Below, piece by piece: positions 9,321 through 45,303 of a stretch of 46,348 nt of DNA. The notes under the pieces were generated by a model that was given only the letters and a program-made list of their open reading frames with translations, ran no database searches and had not been told where the DNA came from. Position numbers and translations under genes: made by a program. The stretch lies in sequence record SRR2962707_3652. One strand, given 5' to 3'. Position 1 is the stretch's first letter, and every line of letters begins with the position of its first letter.

Positions 9321-9334
9321 GCAATATCTGACAA
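9321..9334 (+). promoter_or_regulatory. GCAA-N5-GACAA box (oriented opposite to flanking genes)
   Basis: GCAATATCTGACAA. Confidence 0.55.
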
Positions 9335-9367
9335 ATTCAGTCTGAAATTACCAACACTTATGAAATA

Positions 9368-10330
9368 TCATTTTAATAAATAAAAATTATCTTCTCTATC
9401 CCTCTCAATTAAAATCTGATCAGGATCAACTTCGACTTTCACTGGTTGATCTTTAAAGTTGAATCTTAACTCATTATTTCCTGATTTTAGCCTCACCTTT
9501 TTATCAAACAAAACCTCACCATCCTTATTGGTTATTTTCATCGGAAAGTATTCATCCATTAGAACCTCAGTTTCATCCCCGAAATCATCAGCTTCTAATT
9601 TTTTCGAGAGGACATTCACATTTAGCAAGTAGGAATCACCTTCATTCTTTACTTCAGCACTTTCTACTTTATGATTATATAAAATGATGTGTTCAAAAAG
9701 GTCTTCAACTAAATATTGTAATGAATCAGGAGTTACTTTTTTTAACTCATTCACAAGATCTTTGGATGTTGGGAACGGTCCTGTTTCTTTCAAGCCAAAT
9801 TGAATCACTAGTCTTTTAAGTGCATGATTTACACTATCTTCTCCGATATACTCTTTCAGGGCATACATCGCCATTGCTCCTTTGTAGTAAATAAGGTAAC
9901 CCTGGTTTTTAGAGGTGAGTAATGGCTCTTCCCCATGATAATCCCTTCTTCGCCATCTGAAGTACAGATAAGCTTGATCATTCAAATATTCCAATACTTT
10001 ATCTCTTCCATATTCTTGCTCCAGGCACATAAGTCTCACCCACTGTGCCATGGTTTCGGTCAATATTCCTCTACCTTCAACAGCTGCTGGCCTCACAATA
10101 TGTGCCCACCATTGATGTGCAAATTCATGTGTAGTGGTATTAAATACCACATCCATAGCATCAGGATGTTCCAAGTTGCTTATGAATCCACCGTATTCCT
10201 GCCAGGCAAAAAGTGTAGGGATGCTTAATGCAGTCCCACTTCCAGGATAGCTAACATTGCTTATCTCCACAACACGTGCTGCCTTATATGGATAATCCGA
10301 AAAGTTTTTGGAACAATAATCCAAAGCGTG
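9368..10330 (-). pseudogene. 5'-truncated M1 family aminopeptidase (C-terminal portion)
   Basis: HEFAHQWW..E zincin motif, YYKG, VDPDQILIER; N-terminus replaced by out-of-frame M23 gene sequence. Confidence 0.85.
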
Positions 10331-10922
10331 TCCCGTCTTCATTGGATTCGATAAAGCCGATGACTTCACCGGACCTCATGGCTAAAATGTTTGTACCAAT
10401 TGGCATTTCAAAATCGTAGGCAAACCAATTATGATGCCCCCAAGCGGGATTAGGTGGGCAATAACTCTGATTGACTAAATAGCTTTCCCCAATCTTAAAG
10501 GGAAGAACATATTTGGAGTTTTGCGGATCACCAAATTGTGAATCACAAACTATCTCCCCCAGTTTAACATCAATAAAATAGGTTTGTTTAACTGTATCAA
10601 TATAGTTTGTTGCTAAGATTTTAACGGTGAATCGTCTATCCTCATTTCCCCAACCGGGAGTACCAGACAATGTAGAGGTGGTGGAATCAAATGATATCCA
10701 ACTTGGGGTTGTAATACTATAAACAGTTGTATCACCGGCACTTAACTCAGTCCTAATTTTATAAGCGTATACCCGATTGTGATCAGTCGACTTACCTGGT
10801 GAACTTACAATTCTTATGGTACTCTCTACTTCATTCACATCTGGATCGGGATCATCAGTAGATGAACAGTGGGCACATACCATGATTAGAAGTCCACCTG
10901 CTACAATCTTTGTTAGATTCAT
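10284..10922 (-). pseudogene. Lipoprotein with Ig-like (He_PIG-like) domain and 3'-truncated M23 peptidase domain
   Basis: Lipobox CAHC-SSTDD, PSWISFD..TLSGTP, HHNWFAYDFEMPIGTNILAMRSGEV; lacks the later HxH motif, reads into M1 DNA near 10330. Confidence 0.75.
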
Positions 10923-10972
10923 TTAGCATAAACTTTTGAGTGCTAAATGTAGAAGACTTAAATCGATGATAT

Positions 10973-10986
10973 TTGTTAAAAGTTGC
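10973..10986 (-). promoter_or_regulatory. GCAA-N5-GACAA box variant
   Basis: Minus strand GCAACTTTTAACAA, 50 nt upstream of ATG 10922. Confidence 0.55.
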
Positions 10987-11070
10987 TTGTTGTAATTTTT
11001 CTAGGGTTACATGATATCCGTATCACAATTACAAATCTCAAGAATCAGATGTGGAATGAGCACAACTGGT

Positions 11071-12825: not shown

Positions 12826-12830
12826 GCTTT

Positions 12831-14433: not shown

Positions 14434-15579
14434 CTAATCAGACCCAATCCACTTACGGAAGTCAGGTGCAGTGATTCTGCTGATAATGTAATTTTCAGTA
14501 GTTCCCTGGAGGCTTATTTTGATTTTCTTATTATCAATAGAACAATATGAAGTAATTGATGACTTGGATATTAATAGTTGCCGATTGGCTCTGAAAAAAG
14601 ATTGCTCGTCTAGCAGACAACTGAGATTATTTAATGATTCATCTACTACAAATCTTTTTTGGTCTTTGGTAATTAGATAATTGATTCTTTCAATGACACA
14701 GAAATAGGCAATATCAATTATAGGGATAATATTTGTCCGATCGCCACTTTTGATTTTCAGTTTTTCAAGTTTAGGATCCGATTTAGTGTTATTGAAGGAT
14801 TGAACATGGCCAACAAAATTCACTGCCATTAAAGCCAATATTTTAAATGGAATCTCGAGATACCAGTAGTCTTTATATAATGAAATTCCGTAGAGCATTC
14901 TCAAAAACAAATAGTTAAATAAAATGTCCATCGGGATAATCAGAATTAGAAGCAAAAACCCTCTTTTTAATAGAAAGTAAGGTGAGTTTTGATTAAGGCT
15001 TTTTTGAATACTTTGAAGGATGGTCCAAGAAATTACTATGAGTAAAGAATGAAAACAAAATTCAGGAAGATATTCGTTGGTATTATAGAGTAGATCTTGT
15101 TCTCCATAGATCAACATTGTTCCTATAAGTAGAGATGAGATGGTGGCCTGCTTAAAATACCTTTTTCTAGATGAAAAGTATTCGTTGAGATATATAAGGA
15201 TATAGCTTATAAGGATACTTAAAACTATTTGCACTTTGGACAAGAAAGATAGACTGGCATCTAGGTTAGGAAAGTAAGAAGGCTTTGGGTAAATCCAGGA
15301 TATGATAAGAAATGTTATCAAAAGCATCAATATCCCTATTGATAATTCAAAGGAAAAACGAATAGGACTAGTAACCCATTTTAAATCTGATTTGGATATT
15401 TTTTTTCCTAAAACAAACGCCACATGGACTGAGATTACAATACATAACCCACAAATCAAAGCAGGTCCTATCTCAAAGTTTATTGTAAGAAAGGAAGCAA
15501 GAAGCCCAATTCCAAGTAGCAATATGGTTACTGGAATAAGGTTCAATTTAGTCCCTCGAATGGTAGTCGTGCTAAGCAT
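14434..15579 (-). CDS. One-component membrane LytTR regulator
   Basis: Multiple TM helices then LytTR domain (IAYF, FFRANRQLLI, ISRITAPDFRKW). Confidence 0.88.
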   Translation of the reverse strand: MLSTTTIRGTKLNLIPVTILLLGIGLLASFLTINFEIGPALICGLCIVISVHVAFVLGKKISKSDLKWVTSPIRFSFELSIGILMLLITFLIISWIYPKPSYFPNLDASLSFLSKVQIVLSILISYILIYLNEYFSSRKRYFKQATISSLLIGTMLIYGEQDLLYNTNEYLPEFCFHSLLIVISWTILQSIQKSLNQNSPYFLLKRGFLLLILIIPMDILFNYLFLRMLYGISLYKDYWYLEIPFKILALMAVNFVGHVQSFNNTKSDPKLEKLKIKSGDRTNIIPIIDIAYFCVIERINYLITKDQKRFVVDESLNNLSCLLDEQSFFRANRQLLISKSSITSYCSIDNKKIKISLQGTTENYIISRITAPDFRKWIGSD

Positions 15580-15805: not shown

Positions 15806-15819
15806 GCAATATTTGACAA
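15806..15819 (+). promoter_or_regulatory. GCAA-N5-GACAA box
   Basis: GCAATATTTGACAA, 78 nt upstream of ORF start 15898. Confidence 0.7.
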
Positions 15820-15897: not shown

Positions 15898-17241
15898 ATG
15901 AATGCTCCCTTAAAATCCCTAACTATTAAAAAATGTAGAATACTTAATATCATCTATATCAAGTGGCTTGTAATATCACTTTTCGGATATCTAATGAGTC
16001 ATTCTTTAAGTGCTCAAAATTTAAATAGGTATTTGAATGAAAGTGTTGTTATAGAGTCAATTTCACCTTTTCAAGAGGATTTCTCAGACTTATTACCACT
16101 GAAGGAAAAGATTGGTAATGCAAGCATAGTTGTCTTAGGTGAGATATCGCATACAGATGGCGCTACTTTTTCAAGTAAAACGAGATTAGTAAAATTCCTT
16201 CATAAAGAGTTAGGATTTGAAGTTTTGGCCTGGGAGTCAGGCTTGGTTGATGCCTGGATGATGAATAAAGCATTTTCACAAGATTCAAGCATTACTAGTG
16301 CGGTTCGTAATTTAATGTCTGGTTCATGGACTTCTAGTCAATACGTAATACCGATTTTTGAATATTCTAAGCTGAGTTGGAGCACAGATTTCCCGTTGAA
16401 AATGGCAGGATTCGATTCTGGACGTCCACCAAAGGGATATGAAAATGCTATGTATGTGCTAGAAATAGGTTACAACTATAAGGAAACAAAATTAACGTCG
16501 AAAGAAAAAATGTGTGTTGATAGTTTATTGAGAGCAACGTATGGCTATTTCAATAATAGGTATTCAATTTCAATTTCAACAGAGACTCGTAAACTGGGCA
16601 AAGCTATACTTTCAGGGCTGTTGAATTCATACATACCAATCAATGAAGACTTTAAATATTTTTTGAGATCCATACTAATGGACATTGAATTGGAAAACAT
16701 TAAATCACTAACGTTTGAATCATGGAACTATGTTCGGGATAAATATATGGCAGATCGAATTATGTGGTTGAAAAATCACTTTTATAAAAATAAGAAAATC
16801 ATCGTGTGGGCCGCATCTGCTCATTTTATGAAAAATTCGCACCTTGTTCACCGTATTGAACCTGACTATGGATTTGAAAGTACTTCAGTTTCATTTCCGC
16901 AGACAGGGGATTATCTAGACAAGTATTTTGGAAAAGGAATTTATACTATAGCCTTTACAACTTATCAAGGAGAAGAAGGTGTAGAATTCCCTAAAGGCCA
17001 TCGCTTTGAAAATTCATCCTATAGGAATAGTATATCGATTCCTCAAAATGCTTTAGAATCGGAAGCTCATAAATTGAAACATCCATATTTATTTATTGAT
17101 TTAAGAAATGTAGATAAGTCAACTCAAGATTCTACGTTTATTGCTCACCCTTTTGGTTTTTCTAAAGATGAAGCACAATGGGACAAAGTGATTGATGCGT
17201 TCTTTTTCATTGATACAATGTTCCCAGATAAGTCCAAATAA
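15898..17241 (+). CDS. Erythromycin esterase family protein (exported)
   Basis: IVVLGEISHTDG, RLVKFLHKELGFEVLAWES, RDKYMADRI, KIIVWAASAH, DAFFFID. Confidence 0.9.
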   Translation: MNAPLKSLTIKKCRILNIIYIKWLVISLFGYLMSHSLSAQNLNRYLNESVVIESISPFQEDFSDLLPLKEKIGNASIVVLGEISHTDGATFSSKTRLVKFLHKELGFEVLAWESGLVDAWMMNKAFSQDSSITSAVRNLMSGSWTSSQYVIPIFEYSKLSWSTDFPLKMAGFDSGRPPKGYENAMYVLEIGYNYKETKLTSKEKMCVDSLLRATYGYFNNRYSISISTETRKLGKAILSGLLNSYIPINEDFKYFLRSILMDIELENIKSLTFESWNYVRDKYMADRIMWLKNHFYKNKKIIVWAASAHFMKNSHLVHRIEPDYGFESTSVSFPQTGDYLDKYFGKGIYTIAFTTYQGEEGVEFPKGHRFENSSYRNSISIPQNALESEAHKLKHPYLFIDLRNVDKSTQDSTFIAHPFGFSKDEAQWDKVIDAFFFIDTMFPDKSK

Positions 17242-17455
17242 AGAATTATTAGACAATATCATTATAGAATTTGCTTAAATCGATAGGTAATTGATCTATT
17301 ACTATTTCCCTATTGATTTAAACTCCTGAACGGTCTTAAAGAAGATTTTTTTAAAGGTTTGTCCAATCGGGATATTGTGCTTACCTATTTGGATAGTATT
17401 GGATTCAATAATATCAACATGGGGCTAGGGTAACAATAGCGGTTTATGTTGAGAT

Positions 17456-18226
17456 TCAAATGTTAGTGCTCTTGTTAATAATTTGCTTGATTTTTTCGCT
17501 ATTGGATCTACTTACTTTCAATTCATCACCGTTAACGATAATAAAATACTCTCCATTTTTATGCTTTTTTAATGATCTAATCTGGTTGATCTTAATGATG
17601 TGGGATCGGTGTATACGCAAAAAATGAGACTTGCCTAGTATTCTTTCCATTTCATGCATCGATTCATAGTATAGGTACTTATTTGTATTGGTGAAAATTT
17701 CCACATAATTGCCAGCTGCACTTACACGAACAATATCAGCAATATTCAATAGTTTAATTTTGTCATGAATTTGGATAGCTATTCTTTTGTCGGAATCTGA
17801 GTTTGTTTTGCTTTGATCGAAAAGCAACTGCATTATTTGATCAAGTTTTTGGTTTGACTCGTGCTCGTCAATTTTCAATTTGACTCGAGTCAATGCTTCA
17901 TCAAATCTTTTGTTGGTATAGGGTTTTAAAAGATAGTCGACTGCATTCTCTTCAAATGCATTTATTGCGAATGAATCATAAGCCGTTGTAAAGATTATGT
18001 GGGGTTTAAAAATGAGCTTCTTAAGAACTTCCAATCCATTAAAATGAGGCATATTAATGTCGAGAAAAATTAAATCAGGCTTCCTTTCGTTTATTAAGCT
18101 AATAGCTTGTCGACCGTCTTTAGCTTCACCTATTATATTCCAATCGTTGTTATTATCCAGAAGAGCTCGAATGTAATCCCTGGCGAGTTTTTCATCATCA
18201 ATAATAAGGATGGTCCTACTGCTCAT
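17456..18226 (-). CDS. LytR/AlgR family response regulator
   Basis: IIDDEKLAR, LIFLDINMP, FTTAYD, DYLLKP, FLRIHRSHII. Confidence 0.96.
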   Translation of the reverse strand: MSSRTILIIDDEKLARDYIRALLDNNNDWNIIGEAKDGRQAISLINERKPDLIFLDINMPHFNGLEVLKKLIFKPHIIFTTAYDSFAINAFEENAVDYLLKPYTNKRFDEALTRVKLKIDEHESNQKLDQIMQLLFDQSKTNSDSDKRIAIQIHDKIKLLNIADIVRVSAAGNYVEIFTNTNKYLYYESMHEMERILGKSHFLRIHRSHIIKINQIRSLKKHKNGEYFIIVNGDELKVSRSNSEKIKQIINKSTNI

Positions 18227-19347
18227 TATTGTTCGTTTGGACGATCAGGCAATACGAATTTAACCTCTACACCAGGTTCAGAATGCCTATTGGAAATATT
18301 AAATACATAACTATCAATATAAGTACCTTTTAATCTACTCAAAGTATTCCTTATCCCAACTCCATTGGTGGTTGATAAATCAAACCCTTGTGGTAATCCT
18401 ATTCCTGTATCTGTAATTGTTATTGAAATGGAATCCTTCTGAAATCTTTTGATTTCAATGGCAATCATTCCTGAAGCCTTGTCCTTTAACCCATGTTTTA
18501 GCGAGTTTTCCACCATAGGTTGCAGTAGGAATTTTGGGATTCTGGTATTAACCAAGTCTTCATCAATGTCCCATACAACTTGAATTCTATCCGAAAATCT
18601 TAATTGTTCTATGCTTAAATATTTCTCAAGAAAAACAAGTTCCTCCTGAATAGGGACACAATTCTTGTTTTCAACATAAATGGTAGTTCGAAGCAAATCA
18701 CTCAACTTTGTTAGTGTTTCAATTGCATCTTCTTTTCTGTTAATTTTAACAAGAGATGCCACTGAATGTAAAGTGTTGAACAAAAAATGAGGATTTAGTT
18801 GCATCCGCAAAGCTTTTAGATTTGCCGTTAGCAACTGTTGTTCTAACTGCGTCGATTTCAATTCAAGTTGTAACGATTTTAATTCGGACTCCTTAAACTC
18901 AACATACCAAATCATTGCAAGATATAGGGCGACAATTAATCCGTAGATAATAAAGTTGCCTAGGAACTGTATAGATAAAATATTCATCCATTTGCCATAG
19001 AAATCCAATTTTGGATCATTATGGGTAAGCGTAAGAAATGCATAGGGCAAACTTCTGATGATAAGAACGAATGAGGCTACCAAAAGATGAAACGTGAATA
19101 TAAGCCAACCAGGTTTCTTGATTTTAATAATGATTTGAGTTGCACTTATTACAAGAGGTGTTATTAGTATCCAAATAACACCAACAATTGCATAGTCAAT
19201 TAGAATATGACTTTGCCGCAATGGTTCTCGATCAAGCGTAAATATTTCAATCCAGCTTTTGATGACAACCAAGGCCCACCAAATTGCCCACCCAAAACTT
19301 ATAATGAGCATTCTATATTTCCAGTCTGAAACTATTCTCTCTATCAT
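18226..19347 (-). CDS. LytS/YehU-type sensor histidine kinase (likely start 19347)
   Basis: TM N-terminus, QLNPHFLFNTL, LLQPMVENSLKHG, DTGIG, GVGIRN. Confidence 0.95.
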   Translation of the reverse strand: MIERIVSDWKYRMLIISFGWAIWWALVVIKSWIEIFTLDREPLRQSHILIDYAIVGVIWILITPLVISATQIIIKIKKPGWLIFTFHLLVASFVLIIRSLPYAFLTLTHNDPKLDFYGKWMNILSIQFLGNFIIYGLIVALYLAMIWYVEFKESELKSLQLELKSTQLEQQLLTANLKALRMQLNPHFLFNTLHSVASLVKINRKEDAIETLTKLSDLLRTTIYVENKNCVPIQEELVFLEKYLSIEQLRFSDRIQVVWDIDEDLVNTRIPKFLLQPMVENSLKHGLKDKASGMIAIEIKRFQKDSISITITDTGIGLPQGFDLSTTNGVGIRNTLSRLKGTYIDSYVFNISNRHSEPGVEVKFVLPDRPNEQ

Positions 19348-19484
19348 AACTTGGATGTTATCTTCACATAACTGAGAATACCATTCTCTTCCGCCACACT
19401 TTAGGTTAAAAATGTTCCATGCGTCCAATGGAAGTTGAATTCAATTATAGCGTAAATCCTGATCAAGATAGTATTATATATATG

Positions 19485-19608: not shown

Positions 19609-20454
19609 GTGCACATGGAATTCCAAAAAAGACCTATTTACATCAATGAGACAAATTTCCGTAAGTCATTTCCAAGTGAGTTCGGGAATTGTTTTTACAT
19701 TTTCAAATCCAATAGTACCATAGGTGATGAATATATCTCAGGATATTCATTCAAGTATGTTTATGATGGTTATGAAGAATATAATATTGATGGCCATTTT
19801 GTTACGCTTAATTCAGGGCAGTGCTTATTCGTTAATTATGGTAGCAAAGTAAAGGTCAATTCAAAAGGACAAGCCATCTCCTTGTTTATTGAGCCGCAAT
19901 TGATAAATCAAGTCTCTAATGCATTCAAGCCTGGCATGAACATCCCATCGAGTAGTGTTCATGTAACCAGTTTGCCTTCAAGCTTTGTCGATGAACTTAA
20001 AAGGTTGGTTTCAAAAACTAATATTGGAGTAGATGATTCATTTTATTACTATGTAGCTAGATTGTTTGTAATAAACCAAATATTATCTCTTGAACCAGAA
20101 TCCATTGAATCTACCGATAATTGTCAACGTTCGGATTATTTGGTAGGAAGACTTGAAATCGCGAAAAGTGTCATTCTGGATATGACCAATAATCTTACGC
20201 TCGACTCGCTTTCACGAGAAGCAGCCGTTTCGAAATGGCACTTAATAAGATCTTTTAAAAATTTATATGGGATTACCCCTTATCAATATCTTTTGAAAAA
20301 GCGATTACTTAAAGCAATTCGTCTTTTATCTGAGGGATGTTCTATAACGGATACAGCAATTCAGGTTGGTTATGGTTCTGTACATGCATTTTCTAAACAA
20401 TTCAAAAAGACCATCGGATACTCACCCAGTGATCTTATTTTTCACAGGGCTTAA
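19609..20454 (+). CDS. Cytoplasmic AraC family regulator (cupin + HTH_18)
   Basis: SFKYVYDGYEEY cupin; LTLDSLSREAAVSKWHLIRSFK..GITPYQY..VGYGSVHAFSKQFKK. Confidence 0.93.
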   Translation: MHMEFQKRPIYINETNFRKSFPSEFGNCFYIFKSNSTIGDEYISGYSFKYVYDGYEEYNIDGHFVTLNSGQCLFVNYGSKVKVNSKGQAISLFIEPQLINQVSNAFKPGMNIPSSSVHVTSLPSSFVDELKRLVSKTNIGVDDSFYYYVARLFVINQILSLEPESIESTDNCQRSDYLVGRLEIAKSVILDMTNNLTLDSLSREAAVSKWHLIRSFKNLYGITPYQYLLKKRLLKAIRLLSEGCSITDTAIQVGYGSVHAFSKQFKKTIGYSPSDLIFHRA

Positions 20455-20522
20455 TGGGTAATTCGAACACAGCTTCCAGCATCATTCATAAGTATAAATC
20501 ACCACTATCATCACTTCCTTTT

Positions 20523-21531
20523 ATGCCTAAGTCTGTTATTTATTTTTCCTGTTTCCTTAATCTTTTTGTGGGGGTTGGTCAATACCAAGAGTTTACAGAG
20601 AGAGAAATTCAATTCCAAAGTGGTGAGGTAACCTTAAGAGGTACGATAATAAAACCCTCTTCAAGTGCCACTGTGCCAGCAATAGTATTTCTGCACGGCT
20701 CAGGGGCACATGAAAGATCAGGCTTTAGACCCTATGCTGAAAAATTTGCCAGGCTAGGGTTTGCCAGTATTTACTTCGATAAAAGAGGAACTGGTGAGTC
20801 TGACGGATCATGGATATATTCTTCACTAGATGATCTTGCAAATGATGCCTTAAGTGCAGTATCCTACTTGAAAAATGAAGAAGGAATTGATGCATCAAGA
20901 ATCGGATTATGGGGAATAAGCCAAGCGGGTTGGGTAGCTCCTATCGCAGCTACAAAAAACAAATGACGTTGCATTTATGATCATTATATCTGGGGGAGGT
21001 GCTAGTCCGAGAGAATCTGAAGACTACTCTTATAATGTATACTTTGATAGAATTGGACTCAATAATTCAGAGAAAAAGGAGGCTTTTGAATTAGTGAATT
21101 CCTATTTTAAATATCTTGAAACAGGAGAAAATTATATAGGGTTAAAATCCCTTCTTTCCAATTATACAACTGAATCTCTTAAACCACTAGCGTCTAGATT
21201 AATGGAGATTCTTCCAACAGAACAAAACCGTAAAAACTGGGAATGGGTAGCTACTTATGAACCTGTTAAGGACATCAAAAAGCTTAAAATCCCAGTACTT
21301 ATATTGCTGGGTGAATTAGATGAGCAACATCCATCCAAACTGACACTGAGTAAATGGAAAGGAGCTTTACCTTCAGAAACATATGAAAATTCATCTATCC
21401 TTGTATTCCCGGGGGCTGGGCATGGTGTTAGAATGAGAGCCGAACACAATGGTCAAGGGAGAGCACCTTTTGCAGATGGATACATGGAGATCCAGATTGG
21501 TTGGTTGTGGAAGAATATTTTAAGCAAATAG
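20523..21531 (+). pseudogene. Frameshifted alpha/beta hydrolase (S9-like), split into ORFs 20454-20966 and 20977-21531
   Basis: VFLHGSG, DKRGTG, GISQAGW in part 1; GELD and HG in part 2; one extra A near 20954-20963 breaks the frame. Confidence 0.88.
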
Positions 21532-27104: not shown

Positions 27105-27118
27105 GCAATTTTCGACAA
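27105..27118 (+). promoter_or_regulatory. GCAA-N5-GACAA box
   Basis: GCAATTTTCGACAA, 68 nt upstream of ATG 27187. Confidence 0.7.
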
Positions 27119-27186
27119 ATGATATCGTGAATAGGCTTGTTAAATTGTTAGCAATTCTATTTTAAGAGATTATCTAATTGTGTTGT

Positions 27187-30870: not shown

Positions 30871-30884
30871 GCAATATTTGACAA
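30871..30884 (+). promoter_or_regulatory. GCAA-N5-GACAA box
   Basis: GCAATATTTGACAA, 74 nt upstream of ATG 30959; identical to the 15806 copy. Confidence 0.7.
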
Positions 30885-30958
30885 GGAAAAACCAGTTCAT
30901 ATTGCGTTACATTATGAACTTATTAAATTTTAGCTCATCTAGAACAGAGAATTAGCCT

Positions 30959-33367: not shown

Positions 33368-34657
33368 TTATTCTACTATTTCAATTACTCTTATAATACT
33401 TGGACTGATGATCGATTCATCCGGGTTATTTACATTAACGTCGTTAATGTAAATTCTACTACCATCTGAACTGAATGCTATGTCATTTGGCAATGAAAAT
33501 TGTGCTTCTAGTAGTGGGCCGTCGACTACACCTCGTAACCCGCTTCCAGCGAACAGACTTATATTTCTGTTAAATGTTACTCTGTGAATTTGATGTAAAC
33601 CACGCGAGGCAACATAGATATAATTCCCGTTAATTAACAAATGACCATTATTTCTTCCTGGTAGAATAGCTAAAATTGAAACATTACCATTTGGTGTTAT
33701 TTTAATTAGATTAGGATTATTAAAATTGGTCACATATAGATTACCAGATTCGTCCAAATCTATTCCGTTAGGACATGAAAAAAGTGAACCAGAAGCAAAA
33801 GTTGAAACTTCGCCGGTGGAATTTACATGGCTTATTGAGTTAGAAGAACAATTGCATACGAAAAGACTTCCGTCATCTCTTACAACTACTCCAACTGGTG
33901 CAGAGAAACCAGATGCAAATTCACTTGTATTGCCTGACTTATCAATCTTAATAATTGATTTCCCTGATAGATTTGACTGGTAGAGATTCCCATCTTTATC
34001 AAAGTCATTACCTGACGCTCCATGGAATCCTGCTGCAAAAACGGTTATCTGACCTTCAGGTGATAATTTAAACACTTTGCTTCCCCATGGATTACCTCCG
34101 GTTGTTTTGCCAAAATCACCCATATAAATATTACCATCCTCATCAATGTCCATTCCTCCAGTTCCTCCATTTATTCCGGTTAATGTTGTTACAAGGTTGT
34201 TTTGTTTTAATGTAATCGGTGTAGATGGATTTGATAACGAACCTCCCAAGATTGGATCAATAGGATAAGAAAGAACGAACACGGTATAACTAATCCCTTC
34301 AATGATCACATCACCATCTGAATCCTGCAATTCTTCAGGAAACTTTACGATAGAAGTTGGAGAAGTTGATGAAATTGGATAATAATTATCTTCTGTTAAT
34401 GCGGCTATTGAATCGAAGTTTGTTGATGCATTGGTCTTAACAACAATTAGCCTGAATTCTTGAATATGGTCAAGATGGGCTGGCTTTTTAAAGCTAACGG
34501 CCAAATCTGTGACGTCACCTAAATTCCCATAATCTTTAGCAGACACATTTGTTGGTGCTTCAATTTCAATGAATGTATCATTTGTTGGGTCACTATTCCC
34601 ACAACTCAATAGACACAATGAAGAAATAAGAATCAAAATGTTTAAAATATTAGTCAT
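33368..34657 (-). CDS. Lipoprotein: FN3-like domain plus NHL/SMP-30-like beta-propeller (likely start 34657)
   Basis: Lipobox LLSC-GNSD, DEDGNIY, DKDGNLY, PNGIDLDESGNLYV, AQFSLPNDI. Confidence 0.8.
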   Translation of the reverse strand: MTNILNILILISSLCLLSCGNSDPTNDTFIEIEAPTNVSAKDYGNLGDVTDLAVSFKKPAHLDHIQEFRLIVVKTNASTNFDSIAALTEDNYYPISSTSPTSIVKFPEELQDSDGDVIIEGISYTVFVLSYPIDPILGGSLSNPSTPITLKQNNLVTTLTGINGGTGGMDIDEDGNIYMGDFGKTTGGNPWGSKVFKLSPEGQITVFAAGFHGASGNDFDKDGNLYQSNLSGKSIIKIDKSGNTSEFASGFSAPVGVVVRDDGSLFVCNCSSNSISHVNSTGEVSTFASGSLFSCPNGIDLDESGNLYVTNFNNPNLIKITPNGNVSILAILPGRNNGHLLINGNYIYVASRGLHQIHRVTFNRNISLFAGSGLRGVVDGPLLEAQFSLPNDIAFSSDGSRIYINDVNVNNPDESIISPSIIRVIEIVE

Positions 34658-34709
34658 GAGAATTGGTTGAGTCAACTCTGACAAATTAGCACTTCGAACT
34701 AAAGATTAT

Positions 34710-34723
34710 TTGTCAATACTTGC
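34710..34723 (-). promoter_or_regulatory. GCAA-N5-GACAA box
   Basis: Minus strand GCAAGTATTGACAA, 52 nt upstream of ATG 34657. Confidence 0.7.
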
Positions 34724-34808: not shown

Positions 34809-36062
34809 CTATGGTTTTGATGGATAAATGACTAAAGCTTCAATAATGCGTCTACTTGGCTCAATGACTAAACCCAATCTCTCAAATTCTCTATCAAAAG
34901 AAGTTTTGGGATCCTCTAAACTTAAATCAAATGACAAGTCATATCTTCCGGTTAAACCTGTTTCATCAACTAATGGTTTGCTAATAAATCCTGACTTTTC
35001 TAAGTGCGTGAAAAGATCTGTGATTGTTATATTTTTTCTATTAAAGTTAGTAGCATACTGAGTTCCTTCTTCGTATTGTGATTCGCTAGAATTAGCTAGA
35101 TACCTTTCTATTTTTTTAGGATCTTTGACTTTTACGACATAAACTTCCATGCTTCTCCTTTCCAAAGCTGCTTCTATTGGCAGATCAAGCTTGCTAAGTT
35201 CTTCCTGAAAGTATTGATAAAATTCGCTTGCGCGCGTTTTAGGTACGGCAACATTTACACAATAGACATATTCTGAATCCTTATCTTCAAACAGGCTTTT
35301 ATTTACATTTTCATATACAATCCACTGTGAGTTTTTTTGAAATGCTGTACCATATATTGCGTCTAGTGGACGATTCATAATTTTCAATTGCCTGAGTCTT
35401 TCAGTCTCTTTAATTGATCTTACTGAAATTGGAAAAGCGTTGGCAACCTTTGGTTGAATCTCAAAGGCATATTCACTTTCTGGAATGTTAGGAAAGTAAC
35501 TTGCCATTGCTAGTATGTCACCAGGACGAGGGTCATTTTTAACGCTTAAATCAATGGATTTCTTATTTAAAATGTTGTTAATAACTTCTATAGTTATGTC
35601 TGACGGACTCGTAATTGCTCGTACAATACCATTTTCATCAATTATGATTGAATGTGGTATTTTGGTATGAGGGAAAAAGTTCTTCATCGAATAATCTGGA
35701 TCTGAAATAAATCTGAAAGGGTAGGGTCGTTTGCGTAAAAAATTTTCTACTCGATATGGGATCTCAGAGCTAACTGCTACAATTTCCAATTCATCTTTGT
35801 ATTCGGTAAGCAGATCATTAAGATGATCCATGGCAGGAATACATGGCCCACACCAAGTCGCCCAGAATTCAATAATAACAATCTTCCCGTTTAATTCTTT
35901 CAAGGATTTAATTTCATAGCCTTGAACGAACTCTCCTGAGATAGGAGTGTTGATGGCTGAATTTCCAATAGATAATTCCTGACCTAGCACATAGTTACTA
36001 AGTTGAATAAGAATGAAAACTGAAAGTAATCTGATCATTTTTTTTTGAACAAATGACCGCAT
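34809..36062 (-). CDS. TlpA-like thioredoxin fused to DUF3738/TIGR03435-like domain
   Basis: EFWATWCGPC; C-terminal KPLVDETGLTGRYDL..LGLVIE. Confidence 0.85.
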   Translation of the reverse strand: MRSFVQKKMIRLLSVFILIQLSNYVLGQELSIGNSAINTPISGEFVQGYEIKSLKELNGKIVIIEFWATWCGPCIPAMDHLNDLLTEYKDELEIVAVSSEIPYRVENFLRKRPYPFRFISDPDYSMKNFFPHTKIPHSIIIDENGIVRAITSPSDITIEVINNILNKKSIDLSVKNDPRPGDILAMASYFPNIPESEYAFEIQPKVANAFPISVRSIKETERLRQLKIMNRPLDAIYGTAFQKNSQWIVYENVNKSLFEDKDSEYVYCVNVAVPKTRASEFYQYFQEELSKLDLPIEAALERRSMEVYVVKVKDPKKIERYLANSSESQYEEGTQYATNFNRKNITITDLFTHLEKSGFISKPLVDETGLTGRYDLSFDLSLEDPKTSFDREFERLGLVIEPSRRIIEALVIYPSKP

Positions 36063-36110: not shown

Positions 36111-36124
36111 TTGTCTAAAATTGC
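36111..36124 (-). promoter_or_regulatory. GCAA-N5-GACAA box with downstream Bacteroidota -7 element
   Basis: Minus strand GCAATTTTAGACAA followed about 26 nt later by TAACTTTG (TAnnTTTG). Confidence 0.75.
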
Positions 36125-36951: not shown

Positions 36952-37734
36952 TTAAAGCATGGTCTGGATTTCATATGGATAACTTTCGAAGCTCATTTTC
37001 ATGTGATTTCCTCCAGATAGGATTGCCTCAGTTGGGTAAATACCTGCGGGTATATTGGTGGCTCTCCAAATTCTTTGCTTCTCAACCACAATTAATAATT
37101 GATGTGCATTTCCTATAGCCGCGAAGTTGTTTGCAGGAGGACTATAACATTCTATGCCGATAGAGTCCTTAACATCATTGATTGCCTTCTGTACATCCTT
37201 AACTACCAATCCTATTTCACTCGCATATAAGATGCTTTTAGAACTAAAAGAATGATCTGTGGAGTTATTGAGTGTGTGTCTGGCTATAAACTCAACAAGA
37301 TTACCAGAAGGATCAAAGAAGTACAACATGTGAGCATCCCATCTAGGAGAGTAAAAAATCTTTTTACCGTCTCTTGGATTGGGTAAAATTGTGATTCCTT
37401 TCGCTTCAACCCATTGTTTTGCCTCTTCAATCTTATTCTCAGGAATGTTGAAGGCAAAGTGATACATAGGGTTCGAATAACTTGTGTTATTTGAGAATGT
37501 TATAAGAGTTTCTCCAGCATTTACACCTATGCTATTGACATTATTGGAAACCTTTAATCCTAAAACATCTTCATAAAATTTAATTTGATCTTTCAGATGA
37601 TCAACAATAAGGTTTAACCTTTGAATACCACCTAATTTAAATGCAGGGTAGATTTCACTAAAGGGATGAAAACCACTTATCAAAGCAGATCCAAAAAGTA
37701 GTGATGAGCTTGTGATGAAATGTCTTCTATTCAT
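36952..37734 (-). CDS. VOC/glyoxalase family protein with Tat signal
   Basis: MNRRHFI twin-Arg, FYEDVLGL, YHFAFNIP, YFFDPSGNLVEFIAR, SEIGLV. Confidence 0.9.
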   Translation of the reverse strand: MNRRHFITSSSLLFGSALISGFHPFSEIYPAFKLGGIQRLNLIVDHLKDQIKFYEDVLGLKVSNNVNSIGVNAGETLITFSNNTSYSNPMYHFAFNIPENKIEEAKQWVEAKGITILPNPRDGKKIFYSPRWDAHMLYFFDPSGNLVEFIARHTLNNSTDHSFSSKSILYASEIGLVVKDVQKAINDVKDSIGIECYSPPANNFAAIGNAHQLLIVVEKQRIWRATNIPAGIYPTEAILSGGNHMKMSFESYPYEIQTML

Positions 37735-37801: not shown

Positions 37802-37815
37802 TTGTCAAATCTTGC
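37802..37815 (-). promoter_or_regulatory. GCAA-N5-GACAA box
   Basis: Minus strand GCAAGATTTGACAA, 67 nt upstream of ATG 37734. Confidence 0.7.
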
Positions 37816-39291: not shown

Positions 39292-39470
39292 TTGCATTTT
39301 TATGAAGAGCAATGGGCAATTATTGATAAACAATAGATAGGATAATATCCTATTTTTAAAAAATCCAATTCCAATTCATAGTACTGTATCTCTATAGCAT
39401 TAATGTTCATTAGTTAGGGTTTTGACTTATCAAGTGGAGTTTTGTTCAATGGAGGTTACAGTGGAAGTAG

Positions 39471-39491
39471 AATCCCAGATTATCTGGGATT
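39471..39491. repeat. ATCCC...GGGAT palindrome
   Basis: AATCCCAGAT-t-ATCTGGGATT. Confidence 0.8.
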
Positions 39492-39802
39492 TTACATTTC
39501 TATCAACGAATTGAATTAGGAAGTAATTCGATCCAAAAAAGCTTACTGGATGATTTCTATCAATATAGAATCGTAACAATCAGTTGTTAATCCAAGAATT
39601 ATCCAGATGTATATGTCAATACACAGCAGAGTAGATGGATTAATTCTCTTTAAAATGGCAATTTTAGATAAAAGAATTTCTAAGCATCCATGTTACCTTG
39701 CTTAATGAGTAATTGCCTCTGGATCAATTACTATAAGGTTTTAAATCATTAAGTAGTTGGGATTAATTTATAGAGTTTTTAACAATAGTGGATAGTTGCA
39801 CG

Positions 39803-39830
39803 AAATCCCAGACTCAGTTCTGGGATTTTT
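39803..39830 (+). terminator. ATCCC...GGGAT hairpin with U-tract
   Basis: AAATCCCAGA-ctcagt-TCTGGGATTT-TT. Confidence 0.6.
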
Positions 39831-39985
39831 GTTTATTAGGCCAGAGTAGAACGAATGATTCAATTTTCATAATTAACAAATCAAAATTCCCAACATGAAC
39901 TAATTGGAGGTTTATTAGTAATAATTGTATATATGTTTCGAAAAAGAAACTGTTATATCAAACTAAATAAAGTTTTTTACTTAAG

Positions 39986-40756
39986 TCATATGTGATGAAG
40001 TAATTCCTGTTTAAAGGTTTGACTTACATTCAGAGTCACTCCATTCGGAAGCTTCACTTCATATTCGCCGTTACCATTGGTAATGATTGCATCTATCAAG
40101 TCAAGATTAATGATGGATGATTTGTGAATACGGACGAAATTTTTTGGGAGTTTCTTCAACATATTTGTCAGTGTTTCCCTGATCAAATGATATTGATCAT
40201 TTGCGAAAAGTTCAAGGTAATTTCCGGATGCAGAGATGTAAACGATTTCATTGAGCTGTATGAAGTAGATTTTGTTTCCTAGTTTAATTGATATTCGTGT
40301 CAATTTTGAATCAATTTCAACATCTTCATTGTAGAGAGATAGTAATTGTTTAATGCTTGATTCATACATCTTATGAGATGTATTTTGGCCAAAATGTGAT
40401 TCTATGCGATCGATTGTTAGGAGGAAACGATCATTGCTAAAAGGTTTGAGTAGGTAATCAAGTGCAGATAGTTCGAAGGCATCTACTGCAAACTGATCAT
40501 AAGCCGTGACAAAAACGGTGAGAGGAAGTGTTTCCAATTGTAGACTTTTCACAATATCAATACCGGATAAGCCTGGCATTTGAATATCTAAAAATGCGAG
40601 ATCCACATTTTTATTTGAGATAAAATCTCGAGCTATCAAGCTGTCTTCAAATTCGCCAATAATCTTAAAACCTTCTTGTTTCTGGAGCAACGATTTGATC
40701 CGATTTCTAGCTACTGGTTCATCATCTACTATTATGGCTTTTATTGATTTTTTCAT
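39986..40756 (-). CDS. LytR/AlgR family response regulator
   Basis: IVDDEPVAR, FLDIQMP, FVTAYD, DYLLKP, FVRIHKSSIIN. Confidence 0.96.
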   Translation of the reverse strand: MKKSIKAIIVDDEPVARNRIKSLLQKQEGFKIIGEFEDSLIARDFISNKNVDLAFLDIQMPGLSGIDIVKSLQLETLPLTVFVTAYDQFAVDAFELSALDYLLKPFSNDRFLLTIDRIESHFGQNTSHKMYESSIKQLLSLYNEDVEIDSKLTRISIKLGNKIYFIQLNEIVYISASGNYLELFANDQYHLIRETLTNMLKKLPKNFVRIHKSSIINLDLIDAIITNGNGEYEVKLPNGVTLNVSQTFKQELLHHI

Positions 40757-41841
40757 GATGCAGTAGATAATTTATCTCCTGGAATAATCAGCTTTACTTT
40801 TGTACCGCCACTCGGTGTAGAATTGATTTGCATAACAGCATTTTGGCCATAAAACGATTTTAATCTTTCCTCCACAAGGTTGAGTCCGATATGCTTTTCT
40901 GGCTTTCCAGATATCCCAACCCCATTGTCAACTATTACAATTTGCAGACCTTGTTCTTCAATGGTGACTATGAAGCCCACTAACCCATCGCCACGTTTTT
41001 TCTCCAATCCATGTTTAATGGAATTTTCTACCAATGGCTGAAGCAGCATATGCGGAATCATGTAATCCAATGCATTTGGACTAACATCCCATTTAACAGT
41101 TAAACGATCTCCGAATCGCACCTGTTCAATATCAAGGTATTTTTTAATTAAGTCCAACTCATCTCTTAAAGTCACCATATTCTTTTCGTTATGCAATGAA
41201 GACCTTAGTATATGACTTAAATCTTCAAGTACCTTTTGTGACTTTTCGATATCTCTTTCCATTAGACCAGAAACAGCATTCAAGGTATTAAAAATGAAAT
41301 GTGGATGCATCTGCGCCTCTAGCGTTTTCAATCGGGCATTGACCAACTGCTCCAAAAGTGCGAGTTCATTAACTTTCTTTTCTTTTAATCTACTTGCTAT
41401 ATTAACCGCATAACCAATACCGATTATTAACAAACCATTTGTGAATAGGTCAAATCCTAATGCATCACGACTAGAGTGAAATGGAGTTTTTTTCCAAATT
41501 AATCTGTCAGATTGAGTGTTGATCTCAGTTTGAGATCGAACTCTCACAATTTCCCGCTTAGTGAATGTTATTTCGAATGCAATAGCGAAGATAAGTGCAA
41601 TAATTATATTAATTGACAATGTGCTTATCCAATAGAAATGCATCTTTCTTTGATGGATAATGATTACAATCGGGATGACTAATATCAGGCTTACCGCCCA
41701 GGAAATTACTTGACCATCGAGTGGCCTACCTATCTCATTGAAAAAGGCAGATTTAAGAACCAGGACCGTTGATAACATAGTCCAGATGAGAGCAACTATC
41801 ATGGACTGAAGTAACCATCGCTTTTTCACAATCCTTTTCAT
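40753..41841 (-). CDS. LytS-type sensor histidine kinase
   Basis: QMHPHFIFNTLN, LLQPLVENSIKHG, DNGVG, IGLNLVEERL. Confidence 0.95.
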   Translation of the reverse strand: MKRIVKKRWLLQSMIVALIWTMLSTVLVLKSAFFNEIGRPLDGQVISWAVSLILVIPIVIIIHQRKMHFYWISTLSINIIIALIFAIAFEITFTKREIVRVRSQTEINTQSDRLIWKKTPFHSSRDALGFDLFTNGLLIIGIGYAVNIASRLKEKKVNELALLEQLVNARLKTLEAQMHPHFIFNTLNAVSGLMERDIEKSQKVLEDLSHILRSSLHNEKNMVTLRDELDLIKKYLDIEQVRFGDRLTVKWDVSPNALDYMIPHMLLQPLVENSIKHGLEKKRGDGLVGFIVTIEEQGLQIVIVDNGVGISGKPEKHIGLNLVEERLKSFYGQNAVMQINSTPSGGTKVKLIIPGDKLSTAS

Positions 41842-41870
41842 TTATTCTAAGATAGTAGTTAATACATGTG

Positions 41871-41921: not shown

Positions 41922-41986
41922 GAGGTAATCCCAGTTCGATTCCAATACTTCTGGAATCACCGTATCATTATCGAAACATATAGCTA

Positions 41987-42487: not shown

Positions 42488-42942
42488 TGAAGAATTCCAT
42501 TAAAATCCTATATATACTAATCATGCTTTTAGCGGCTGTATCCGTAAGAGCGCAAAAAGAGAAACTAGATAAGATGATTTTGGGTACTTGGGTCTATAGT
42601 GATTCAAGTGCGAGACTATCGGCTGAAGCATATGTAAAACGTATAGTTGAGGAAAATCCGAATATGGGCACACCTCCATTAGGGACGACTGAGCGGTATG
42701 AAGAATTATTCAAAACCACCACTTACGAGTATAAGAAAAATGGAAAGTATTTACACTTGACCAAAGGGAGGGAACCCGCTCTTGAAGGTGAATGGTCAAT
42801 CAGTAATGATGGCGAGTGGCTTTCACAAATTAGGGATGAGAATGAAAGAAAATATCGATTAGTCTTAATTTCTGATGAGAAGCTGACATTTTACTCTGAA
42901 AAGATGGAAAGTAACATCACGTTTGATAGGGTAAAGAAGTAG
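42487..42942 (+). CDS. Exported lipocalin-like domain protein
   Basis: Signal peptide, ILGTW, GEWSISNDG, ISDEKL. Confidence 0.6.
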   Translation: MKNSIKILYILIMLLAAVSVRAQKEKLDKMILGTWVYSDSSARLSAEAYVKRIVEENPNMGTPPLGTTERYEELFKTTTYEYKKNGKYLHLTKGREPALEGEWSISNDGEWLSQIRDENERKYRLVLISDEKLTFYSEKMESNITFDRVKK

Positions 42943-42948
42943 CCAAGG

Positions 42949-43330
42949 CAATTACAAGCACAAAAATTAGTAGAAGAAGAGTTTGAAGCCATTGTCTACA
43001 ATCATCGCATTTACAAAGTATTGGTAAACAGTAAACCCTATACATTCCTATTGAATATTGGAGCAAGTGGAATAGGAAGGATTCACACCAACGTATCGAA
43101 AGAACTTGGACTTGACTCTGTTGGTACGACCACAAATTTTGATGGGATCAATGAGAAAACTGAAAAACTGGTAGGAGTGCAAAAGTCTAAAGTTAGGCTC
43201 AATTGAATTTAAAGATATTCAGATCATGGAGCGGTTTAATCCTCATCGAAGTAAAGATGTTCCTATACATGGAATCTTAGGTGCAGGTTTTTTTGCTAAA
43301 TATTTACTTGAAATGAATTACCCTAAATCC
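42949..43330 (+). pseudogene. Retropepsin-like aspartyl protease remnant
   Basis: VNSKPYTFLL-NIG-AS (DTG degenerated), frame break near 43200, then IHGILGAGFF..MNYP; no start codon. Confidence 0.7.
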
Positions 43331-43762
43331 AACTTAGGTAAAGTGCTCTGTGAGATAGTAGATCAACCGATTCCCCAATATTTTTTTAATTGGGAAGACA
43401 GTAGATGGGTAGAAAACATTCATTATGAACTAGATGTAGATGAATTTGGTAAACGCTTGATTGAACTCTGGGAAAAAAGAAACGAAAATGGGTTGAGAGT
43501 GGACTATATGAAAGTGACATATACTTATTGAGACAAAGGATCGTATTTTAAATTATTATTCGAAATGTATCATTCTCCTGAATAAAAGCCTGCTTTTGTT
43601 CTTTATTCACTTGTTTATTTCAGGAATCTTCATAGAGCAAAATCCCTAAATCTGATGCCTAACGAAAGTAGAAATATTGGATAAACAAGAGTTTGTTACG
43701 GCCATCAAGGTTACCGCATGGTAGGGAATTGACTATATGCTGTTATAAAAAAGCAGTGGCAT

Positions 43763-45124
43763 CTACTTTGCCAGTACCACGTGTTCCAGGATCCATGCAT
43801 ATGCCTTTTCTAAGGTTCCTGGTGCACTTTTCGGCCATCTAAGATATCGCTCAGGCCAAGCTCCATCTACTGGCCCCATCACACCAGAGGGTATGCGCAT
43901 ACTATGATCCCCTTCTTCATGAATGAAAATCTTGTAATCTTGGTTTCCTGCTTTAGCCATCAGTTTTTCTAGTTGGACGCCATTTTCTTGTGCGGGTACA
44001 ACCGCATCTTTTCCACCGTAGATTGCGTATATAGGCATTTTGGCTTTTTCTAAATATGGAACCGGATCATACTTCCTCCTACGATAATAATCAAGATCAG
44101 AATTATTTAGGTCTTCTGGTATGTACACAAATTCCTCCCAAACACTGCCTCGAGCTTCTTCTATATAAGGAAGAAAATCCTCCCAATCAGCGCCTGCCCA
44201 TGAAAGCTCCACCATTTTCTTTTGAAACTCGAAGGCTGACTGGATGTCTTCTTCTTCAAAATCAAGGTCACTGAATCTCATCGACCATTCAGGGTAATGG
44301 CCTTGTTGATCTGCCAAGCTAACAGCTGGCCCCACATCCAACACCAAAAAGGCAACATTTTTTACTCTTGATGCTACAACCGGGACAATCCAGCCTCCTG
44401 CACTGGTTCCCCACAAGCCAATTTGATTGTTATCAATTCGTTTGTCTTTACGAAGCAGTTCAACCGCAGAAATAACATCCTGAAAGCGGTCTTCTTCGAT
44501 TAGTATATCCCGATTACCTGTAGACCTACCGGTTCCTCTTCCATCAAATATTAGCACTGCAACGCCTCTTTGTGCCATATCTAAGGCAACCCCATAGTTC
44601 CCCATACGAGATCCATATCCTCTTCCTTGAACCACTACCATAGCTGGATGTGGACCAGACCCATTGGGGTAAATGACGGAAGCTCCTATGGTGTCTTTTC
44701 CTGCCAAATAGGTAACCTCTTCAATAGATACATCTGGAGTTACCGGACGAATAGCACGACTCATATGGACTTTAAAGGTATCTCCACCACGGTTAGTTAT
44801 AGTACCTCTTAATTGTCCGCTTTTGAAGTCAGCAAGCAATTCCATCTGACCATAAAAATGCCTAAAACTAACCATACCGGAACTGATTGAGATTGGTAGC
44901 CCTCCTCTGACTAAATTCATTTCAGGCACATCAATGGTTGCAGACAGAGTCCCCAACTCCTCATTTTTAAGTATATCAAGTTTGAAAATTTGGATCGATC
45001 CACTACTGTCAATTACAGCCCCTTCCCAATATCCTTCCAGATTATCAGTTTCATTGTCGGTTTGTGCAAATGTTAAACCGGATAACATCAAAGTAAAGAA
45101 TATATGTACAAGTATTTTTTTCAT
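43763..45124 (-). CDS. Exported alpha/beta hydrolase (S9-like)
   Basis: Signal peptide, FDGRGTG, GTSAGG nucleophile, GGKD, GDH. Confidence 0.92.
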   Translation of the reverse strand: MKKILVHIFFTLMLSGLTFAQTDNETDNLEGYWEGAVIDSSGSIQIFKLDILKNEELGTLSATIDVPEMNLVRGGLPISISSGMVSFRHFYGQMELLADFKSGQLRGTITNRGGDTFKVHMSRAIRPVTPDVSIEEVTYLAGKDTIGASVIYPNGSGPHPAMVVVQGRGYGSRMGNYGVALDMAQRGVAVLIFDGRGTGRSTGNRDILIEEDRFQDVISAVELLRKDKRIDNNQIGLWGTSAGGWIVPVVASRVKNVAFLVLDVGPAVSLADQQGHYPEWSMRFSDLDFEEEDIQSAFEFQKKMVELSWAGADWEDFLPYIEEARGSVWEEFVYIPEDLNNSDLDYYRRRKYDPVPYLEKAKMPIYAIYGGKDAVVPAQENGVQLEKLMAKAGNQDYKIFIHEEGDHSMRIPSGVMGPVDGAWPERYLRWPKSAPGTLEKAYAWILEHVVLAK

Positions 45125-45289
45125 TTAGGTTGACTATTAATTAGGTATAATGCTAAACTCCGATACTTCATCCTTCTTTTTTATTTAGAAAGGGATATTC
45201 CGAATGTTAAATATGAGCAATAGCATGAATAATTGACTCCTATTAAGAGACGAAAATGAGTGATATATGATTCTAAACTCGTGTAATAA

Positions 45290-45303
45290 GCAACATTTGA
45301 TAA
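45290..45303 (+). promoter_or_regulatory. GCAA-N5-GACAA box variant, no intact gene downstream
   Basis: GCAACATTTGATAA preceded by AA as in most copies. Confidence 0.5.

Follow-up and report, generated by a model that had tools for sequence, protein, structure and literature searches.

The stretch analysed here, 46,348 nucleotides (nt) from sequence record SRR2962707_3652 and referred to at its full length as the window, carries repeated copies of a 14-base box, GCAA-N5-GACAA, and a gene for an AraC-family protein at 19609-20454 that we consider its candidate regulator (Table 1). A Pfam scan described a Bacteroidota-type contig with an extracytoplasmic function (ECF) sigma factor gene (1912-2403) and a SusD gene, then UxuA. 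Two AraC proteins are encoded, one membrane-anchored (6358-7413) and one soluble (19609-20454), as are five proteins of the beta-lactamase family (PF00144). No close relative of this DNA was found: among the closest homologues, those of the TlpA-DUF3738 fusion were at most 43% identical and the best for UxuA was 75% identical. Seven of the boxes lie 48-78 nt upstream of, and co-oriented with, genes, as stated in a preliminary description made from the sequence alone. The genes headed in this way are not paralogues of one another, except for two propellers that share 34% identity over 119 residues.

Table 1. Boxes, box-headed units and the candidate regulator gene in the window. Distances are in nt; ORF, open reading frame.
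Coordinates	Strand	Feature	Element downstream of box	Gene or unit and distance from box
9321..9334	+	Box GCAATATCTGACAA	No TAnnTT	No co-oriented gene
10973..10986	-	Variant box GCAACTTTTAACAA	TACATTTA, 21 nt	ORF 10284-10922 (He_PIG domain), 50 nt
15806..15819	+	Box GCAATATTTGACAA; matrix score 24.4	TAATGT at 18 nt; no TAnnTT at 21-23 nt	ATG of erythromycin-esterase-family gene 15898-17241, 78 nt
19609..20454	+	AraC-family gene, candidate regulator; HTH_18 2.4e-21, HTH_AraC 4.5e-16 (Pfam)
27105..27118	+	Box GCAATTTTCGACAA	TAAATTGT, 27141-27148	ATG 27187 of lipoprotein gene (to 28362), 68 nt
30871..30884	+	Box GCAATATTTGACAA	TACATTAT, 30908-30915	MacB_PCD/FtsX permease gene 30959-33358, 74 nt
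34710..34723	-	Box GCAAGTATTGACAA	TAATTTGT, 21 nt (34688-34681)	ATG 34657 of NHL/SGL beta-propeller lipoprotein gene 33368-34684, 52 nt
36111..36124	-	Box GCAATTTTAGACAA	Full TAACTTTG, 26 nt (36084-36077)	TlpA/AhpC-DUF3738 fusion gene 34809-36062, 48 nt
37802..37815	-	Box GCAAGATTTGACAA	TAAGTTGC, 22 nt (37779-37772)	Glyoxalase/VOC gene 36952-37734, 67 nt
39316..39510	+	Unit A, variant box GCAATTATTGATAA (39316-39329)	TATTTTTA at 39351	Terminator-like hairpin 39467-39495
39658..39850	+	Unit B, variant box GCAATTTTAGATAA (39658-39671)	TACCTTGC at 39694	Terminator-like hairpin 39802-39829
45290..45303	+	Variant box GCAACATTTGATAA	TACGTTTT, 33 nt	Truncated DUF4917 ORF 45624-46142, 320 nt

A pattern search of the window returned seven exact matches to GCAA-N5-GACAA, at 9321, 15806, 27105 and 30871 on the plus strand and at 34710, 36111 and 37802 on the minus strand, reproducing the sites and coordinates described earlier. 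Dinucleotide-preserving shuffles (n = 100) contained a mean of 0.33 exact boxes and a maximum of 2. When one mismatch was allowed, 21 sites were found against 12.4 expected, and most one-mismatch matches are therefore noise. Four of the one-off variants (10973-, 39316+, 39658+ and 45290+) stand out from this noise because they carry the T-rich spacer and flanking A residues common to the exact boxes. A scoring matrix was built from the seven exact boxes and these four variants, and was thus trained on the sites that it then scores; with it, the 11 boxes scored 16.1-25.3, above every other site in the window (next best 12.5) and above the best site in coding DNA (10.1). All 11 boxes, the four variants included, are intergenic, falling within the 5,835 intergenic bases of the gene model, and positions 1-5700 hold none, as had been reported.

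Elsewhere, 12 exact matches to GCAA-N5-GACAA were found in 1.39 Mb of other, mostly Bacteroidota, loci, and five Bacteroidota genomes contained 20-56 exact matches each, with random spacers. A stricter pattern, AAGCAAKWTTTGACAA, occurs three times in the window; in a phylum sample of 401 genomes it occurred as a single copy in 16 and never twice, and a reversed-pattern control gave 12 single matches. Members of the phylum at large thus do not share the box motif.

The boxes lie at a near-constant distance from a second element. TAnnTT starts 21-23 nt after seven of the 11 (27105, 30871, 34710, 37802, 10973, 39316 and 39658), and at an eighth, 36111, the full TAACTTTG that the preliminary description had recognised as a canonical -7 box follows at 26 nt, the sole case of a complete -7 consensus. 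Random sets of 11 intergenic anchors had TAnnTT at 21-23 nt in at most four positions over 20,000 trials, and in 14,933 trials there was none. In three sources, TTTG at -33 and TAnnTTTG at -7 are given as the primary sigma consensus of Bacteroides and Flavobacterium (PMC2483708, PMC7366714, PMC7641319). If the TA of TAnnTT is taken to lie at about -12 from a predicted start site, the 14-base box would span about -48 to -35; for promoters with a -7-type box, the 21-23 nt gap would therefore place its centre near -41. This predicted position, together with the forward orientation, supports the earlier suggestion of an activator overlapping -33.

The usual spacing between the -33 and -7 elements is about 19. 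In the box-region sequences no TTG was found 17-21 nt upstream of TAnnTT, and the only TTG lies within the box, 25-27 nt upstream. Because no TTG lies at the usual distance, the box would seem to occupy the place of the -33 element at promoters with a weak -7 box. Beyond the box, no conserved columns were found in the 15 nt upstream or the 45 nt downstream, save for the -7-like element. To judge from this arrangement, the boxes appear to be real parts of promoters. Two other promoter readings were tried and rejected: an Escherichia coli-type -35/-10 promoter (TTGACA-N17-TATAAT) fitted 15806 alone, and a sigma-54 reading of the reverse strand (TTGTC-N5-TTGC), assessed by eye, lacked the GG and had the wrong orientation.

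The sequence of the box resembles a known operator. The marbox, 5'-GCAHWWWWTGYYAAA-3', is bound by a MarA monomer (PMC6900184). Over its 15 positions the 11 boxes have 1-3 mismatches, mostly 2, which supports the earlier proposal of an AraC/XylS monomer-type site resembling the marbox; for comparison, marbox screens in E. coli tolerate up to 2 mismatches (PMC12052159). Only 36 of about 92,700 window positions, counted on both strands, match GCAHWWWWTGYYAAA as well, and such a likeness is therefore unlikely for an arbitrary motif. In PMC12052159 a class II promoter has a forward marbox overlapping the -35 hexamer, with positions ranging from -36 to -55; the orientation of the box, with GCAA distal and GACAA proximal, and its predicted centre match this definition. 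A literature search for the marbox in Bacteroidetes yielded no account of this box or of this AraC subfamily. Within the same phylum, the AraC-type sites of Bacteroides hybrid two-component systems are two direct repeats about 21 bp apart that are read by a dimer (PMC3878776). Those systems likewise use AraC-type DNA-binding domains as activators, the role proposed here for the window, whereas the window box stands alone, and 21 bp away no second copy was found.

The soluble AraC protein, 19609, has the C-terminal domain with two helix-turn-helix motifs that places a protein in the AraC/XylS family, with seven helices modelled in 173-280. The full-length model (mean predicted local distance difference test score 87) combines an N-terminal beta-sandwich with this two-motif domain. 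When the DNA-binding domain was compared with all solved structures, SoxS was closest in sequence (7.8e-8), followed by Rob, a response-regulator AraC domain, RamA and MarA. Helix 3 reads SKWHLIRSFK in 19609 and SKWHLQRMFK in Rob. According to PMC11633057, W42 and R46 of MarA helix 3, which sits in the A-box, are important for binding. The helix-3 Trp and Arg are retained in 19609, and helix 6 diverges more. Even so, 19609 is not an orthologue of MarA, SoxS or Rob: the SoxS/Rob match (expectation value, E, about 1e-7) concerns the DNA-binding domain alone, and the whole architecture is ToxT/Rns-like. A Foldseek search with the model placed Rns, ToxT and CsvR on top (E 1e-12 to 1e-10), and the model suggests the same whole-protein fold as in these regulators, where the N-terminal part is a ligand-binding fold. 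They differ from 19609 in sequence (16-19% identity) and in domain placement (template modelling scores about 0.35), and their DNA sites are unrelated to the box. ToxT, Rns and CsvR bind asymmetric single sites.

The 19609 protein is rare. A HMMER search of 1.84 billion representatives yielded only three proteins with E no higher than 1e-30; the nearest of them is 41% identical and likewise has the helix-3 Trp, and the closest full-length relatives are uncharacterised. A word-index protein search with 19609 found no homologue, and a first metagenome scan with the single protein returned nothing. An alignment of 25 relatives showed two conserved helices, LSK[YWF]HLIRSFK and SFSKQFK, and a metagenome scan seeded with two recognition-helix peptides, from a small alignment of relatives, gave 80 loci (585 kb).

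In these 80 AraC loci, 21 sites scored at least 13 with the window matrix, whereas control loci totalling 1.42 Mb contained 12 such sites (8.4 per Mb). Removal of duplicates left 74 loci, in which the matched coding stretch was excluded and the near-duplicate pair L162/L165 was still counted. Here 15 box-like sites fell in the 145 kb near the AraC match (-1,500/+1,000 nt) and 4 in the other 390 kb, or 103 versus 10 per Mb; at the control rate 1.2 sites would be expected near the match where 15 were observed (Poisson P 5e-12). This clustering near homologues of 19609 supports the idea of the preliminary description that one control input is shared by unrelated exported genes.

Locus L090, which is identical to L171 and to the locus in genome G345, was counted once. 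On either side of its AraC homologue (8001-8909) there are boxes of the form GAGCAATAATTGACATG, four in all, and three of them lie 53-67 nt upstream of co-oriented GyrI-like, Lumazine_bd_2 and AHSA1/SRPBCC genes. Boxes in L096 and L101 lie 37 and 9 nt past the AraC stop codon, and are followed at 63 nt by a BNR lipoprotein gene and at 41 nt by an alpha/beta-hydrolase-PDZ-BNR gene, respectively. In L092 the box precedes a Sortilin/BNR propeller gene with a type IX secretion system tail, and in genome G161 the AraC homologue is followed by a box and then by a penicillin-amidase gene. Three further loci (L126, L156 and L162) have the box 36-73 nt upstream of the AraC gene itself.

Genome-wide searches gave the sharpest result. 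All four matches to GCAATWWTTGACA in G345 lie within about 4 kb around the homologue, and three of the four in G397 lie around its own; the reversed-pattern control gave 0 in each genome. The AraC loci of G397 and G345 are syntenic, with 87% DNA identity over 3.8 kb, and their boxes sit in fully conserved blocks while the surrounding intergenic DNA is 83-89% identical overall, a modest footprint. Among 216 genomes of the family of G345, matches to GCAAKWWTTGACA never exceeded six per genome and, among the 150 matches listed, formed a tight cluster in G345 and G397 only. The window has four matches to GCAAKWWTTGACA within 22 kb. Elsewhere, therefore, the circuit appears to be a small local regulon, of which the window would be an unusually large version. 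In G069, G061 and G452, matches lay in pairs separated by 9-15 kb, but neither homologues of window proteins nor a TAnnTT at 21-23 nt turned up there, and the pairs were set aside as probable chance. Nine TlpA-DUF3738 homologue loci in the phylum sample had no box upstream. Beside the AraC-and-box locus of L090, a minus-strand gene at 4848-6509 encodes a 553-residue alpha/beta-hydrolase fused to a C-terminal AraC DNA-binding domain.

Our preferred explanation, to which we give a probability of about 0.62, is that the box serves as the class II operator of an uncharacterised AraC/XylS subfamily, with 19609 as the member in the window, and that it has been unusually multiplied here. One AraC molecule would set its two helix-turn-helix motifs into adjacent major grooves, helix 3 reading GCAA and helix 6 reading GACAA ten bases on. 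The site would be centred about 41 bases upstream of the predicted start, in forward orientation, where the -33 TTTG element normally sits. From there the bound protein would activate rather than repress, helping RNA polymerase to use a weak -7 box (TAnnTT), which would be class II activation as at MarA, SoxS and Rob promoters. In the window, the site may govern seven or more unrelated genes, whose products are exported or membrane proteins, and probably also a pair of small RNAs, in response to a signal presumably sensed by the N-terminal domain.

The parallel with the mar-sox-rob system of E. coli and Salmonella (MarA, SoxS, Rob and RamA) extends over several features. Marbox and window box are both asymmetric single sites, made up of a GCA half and a CAA/AAA half set one helical turn apart, with an A/T-rich spacer ending in TG. 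Both mar-sox-rob class II sites and, by prediction, the window boxes lie forward over the upstream promoter element, centred near -41, and both sets of targets are mixtures of envelope and enzyme genes. The systems differ in that the window belongs to another phylum, with promoters that use a -7 box rather than a -10 box and lack a -35 hexamer, and in that the site carries A instead of Y at position 11. The proteins differ as well: across the DNA-binding domain 19609 shares only about 30% identity, its helix-6 residues are different, and it is no orthologue of MarA. Its N-terminal beta-sandwich also sets it apart from MarA and SoxS, which are single-domain proteins, and from Rob, which has a C-terminal GyrI-like domain.

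Several observations weigh against the box being a class II operator of 19609. The marbox consensus is loose, and where it has Y, at position 11, every one of the 11 boxes has A. A complete TAnnTTTG is found downstream of just one of the 11, and no TAnnTT occurs at 21-23 nt after the L090 boxes. No box adjoins the 19609 gene or its upstream region, the nearest being 3.8 and 6.6 kb off, whereas in relatives the boxes flank the regulator. The box-bearing AraC homologues are just 32-35% identical to 19609, and only about a third of the roughly 20 loci with a near-full-length homologue show a box near the gene. In the phylum sample, seven genomes have a homologue of 19609 at E up to 1e-18, and only three of these (G397, G345 and G161) show a box scoring at least 13 in the 1.5-kb flanks. 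The window also encodes the second AraC protein and four LytTR proteins, and the regulator could be a paralogue of 19609 encoded elsewhere in the genome.

A different regulator might instead read the box: one of the four LytTR proteins, the membrane AraC protein 6358-7413, or an OmpR-type regulator encoded elsewhere that recognises a 10-bp-spaced RRCAA-N5-RRCAA. Three LytS/LytTR pairs and one membrane LytTR protein are encoded in the same 36 kb, box 15806 lies between the membrane LytTR gene and its target, and box 27105 directly follows a LytTR operon. The halves of the box also form a 10-bp direct repeat, and tandem sites with 10-bp spacing are the geometry of OmpR/PhoB-type regulators. We nevertheless regard this as unlikely. 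The boxes in other DNA go with AraC homologues, and at positions 4000-14000 of L090 no response regulator was seen by eye among ORFs of at least 90 amino acids, of which seven of the ten were scanned with Pfam and showed no LytTR or receiver domain. A LytTR operator consists of two direct repeats of 9-10 bp separated by about 12-13 bp, with copies about 21 bp apart; the window boxes have no second copy about 21 bp away and no conserved flanking columns. As for the membrane AraC protein, its helix 3 (SKHYLSQVV) lacks both the Trp and the Arg.

No activator at all would be involved if an alternative sigma factor used the box itself as its upstream promoter element. Its fixed orientation and distance to the downstream element, and the missing -33 TTG, would suit such a role, and there is an ECF sigma gene at 1912-2403. 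This seems to us a slender prospect, however, since the downstream element (TAnnTT, once TAACTTTG) is similar to the housekeeping -7 box and unlike an ECF -10 element. The 21-23 nt gap is also longer than expected: ECF promoters have AAC-type -35 and CGT-type -10 elements 16-17 nt apart. The ECF gene in the window sits with an anti-sigma-like ORF and the SusD gene, and the four genome-wide matches in G345 are all grouped around a single AraC gene, which a local regulator fits better.

The preliminary description had alternatively taken the box for a recombination or gene-capture boundary marking the units in which cargo was acquired, and gene debris in the region (the partial copy of 8808-9236 at 6059-6241, an M1 fragment, a LytTR fragment and a split hydrolase), a G+C content lower than in 1-5700 and the presence of some boxes with no downstream gene could be read that way, but this is highly improbable for a box that is asymmetric, with no inverted partner or dyad, that stands 48-78 nt before start codons or at the head of terminator-bounded units with a -7-like element at fixed distance, that is accompanied by no integrase or transposase family in the Pfam scan of the window, and that in G345 and G397 occupies a stable, syntenic AraC locus with 87% DNA identity.

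Operation of the box as a class II operator would extend to two short units that lack a protein-coding gene. Units A and B are about 190 nt each, with TAnnTT 21-22 nt after the box, then about 100-140 nt without an ORF over 36 amino acids, and a terminator-like hairpin at the end. Two such hairpins were found on the same strand as a box, against 0.3 in shuffles. Aligned globally over their whole length, the units scored 121.5, compared with 75.6 (standard deviation 8.2) for shuffles, and they have in common the stem AATCCCAGA...TCTGGGATTTT. The predicted RNA fold was more stable than in shuffles for unit A (z -4.5) and unremarkable for unit B (z -1.6). Rfam gave no match in the window, and no copy of either unit was present in any other locus compared. 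In our reading, units A and B are candidate small RNAs controlled by the box, and form a tandem pair that has diverged. The earlier assertion that boxes lacking a gene adjoin gene debris did not hold for these two, since no debris was recognisable at 39316 or 39658 and each box heads a short unit ending in a terminator-like hairpin. One small RNA of the E. coli mar-sox-rob regulon is micF; if units A and B are RNAs, they would be its counterpart by analogy.

More tentatively, an AraC circuit that is normally local, with 3-4 sites, may have grown in an uncultured marine member of the Bacteroidota into a mar-like regulon for stress or xenobiotics that spans a region. It would comprise a ligand-sensing AraC protein and, activated from a marbox-type site in place of the -33 element, seven or more exported or membrane proteins and a pair of small RNAs in a micF-like role. 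In this speculative scheme the marbox recognition code and class II geometry would have come into use independently in a second phylum, on another promoter architecture. The proteins concerned include members of families known elsewhere for antibiotic inactivation or export, namely an erythromycin esterase, a virginiamycin-lyase-like propeller, a bleomycin-resistance/glyoxalase fold and a MacB-type permease. The label of a detoxification regulon, which was also given to these genes earlier, derives from such family names only.

Very few transcription-factor sites are known in Bacteroidota outside the sugar regulons of gut Bacteroides, and the action of activators at their -33/-7 promoters has been little studied. 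What the present analysis offers is concrete and testable: an AraC subfamily paired with a 15-base site that keeps a fixed place in the promoter. The pair seems to follow the logic of the best-studied stress regulon of E. coli. The analysis also connects a group of uncharacterised exported enzymes of a marine bacterium, several of which come from families associated with antibiotic inactivation, and predicts two small RNAs. The interest of the system would lie in a recognition code and promoter geometry common across phyla, in the regional expansion, and in the combination of resistance-related exported enzymes with two candidate small RNAs. Searches for the regulon in further genomes could start from the box, which might also be turned into an inducible promoter part for genetic work in Bacteroidota.

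Some details of the individual boxes and genes complete the description. Box 9321 faces the 3' end of the M1-peptidase fragment 9368-10369 on the minus strand, and lies 85 nt upstream of the minus-strand gene 8808-9236 in reversed orientation. The ORF at 10284-10922, on the minus strand and overlapping that M1 fragment, had been labelled M23; Pfam gives He_PIG only. A gene at 28371-28898 comes next after the lipoprotein gene 27187-28362. The product of the glyoxalase/VOC gene begins MNRRHF, a twin-arginine start.

Two plus-strand ORFs, 20454-20966 and 20977-21531, make up a split alpha/beta-hydrolase (S9/S15-type) that lies immediately behind the 19609 gene and overlaps its stop; either the gene is broken or the assembly is in error. 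The N-terminal half of the hydrolase shares 37% identity with an intact paralogue at 43763-45124. Further debris comprises the overlapping M1-peptidase fragment and He_PIG ORF, a second M1-like fragment at 42943-43225, and a LytTR fragment in the intergenic DNA at 17242-17455. Past the UxuA gene, G+C falls from about 0.40-0.41 (1-5700) to 0.33-0.38 (5700-43000). The earlier designation of the region as an island agrees with this drop, but neither an integrase nor a tRNA nor a direct-repeat boundary was found. Four LytTR-domain regulators are encoded in 27 kb (14434-15579, 17456-19428, 24340-27022 and 39986-41841), three paired with PF06580 histidine kinases and one fused to a multi-pass membrane domain; between one kinase and its LytTR regulator lies an ORF, 25335-26333, with no Pfam match. 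The long intergenic stretch 5646-6357 contains a pseudogene fragment, in that 6059-6241 is a copy, 84-91% identical, of 8888-9072 in the small lipoprotein gene 8808-9236.

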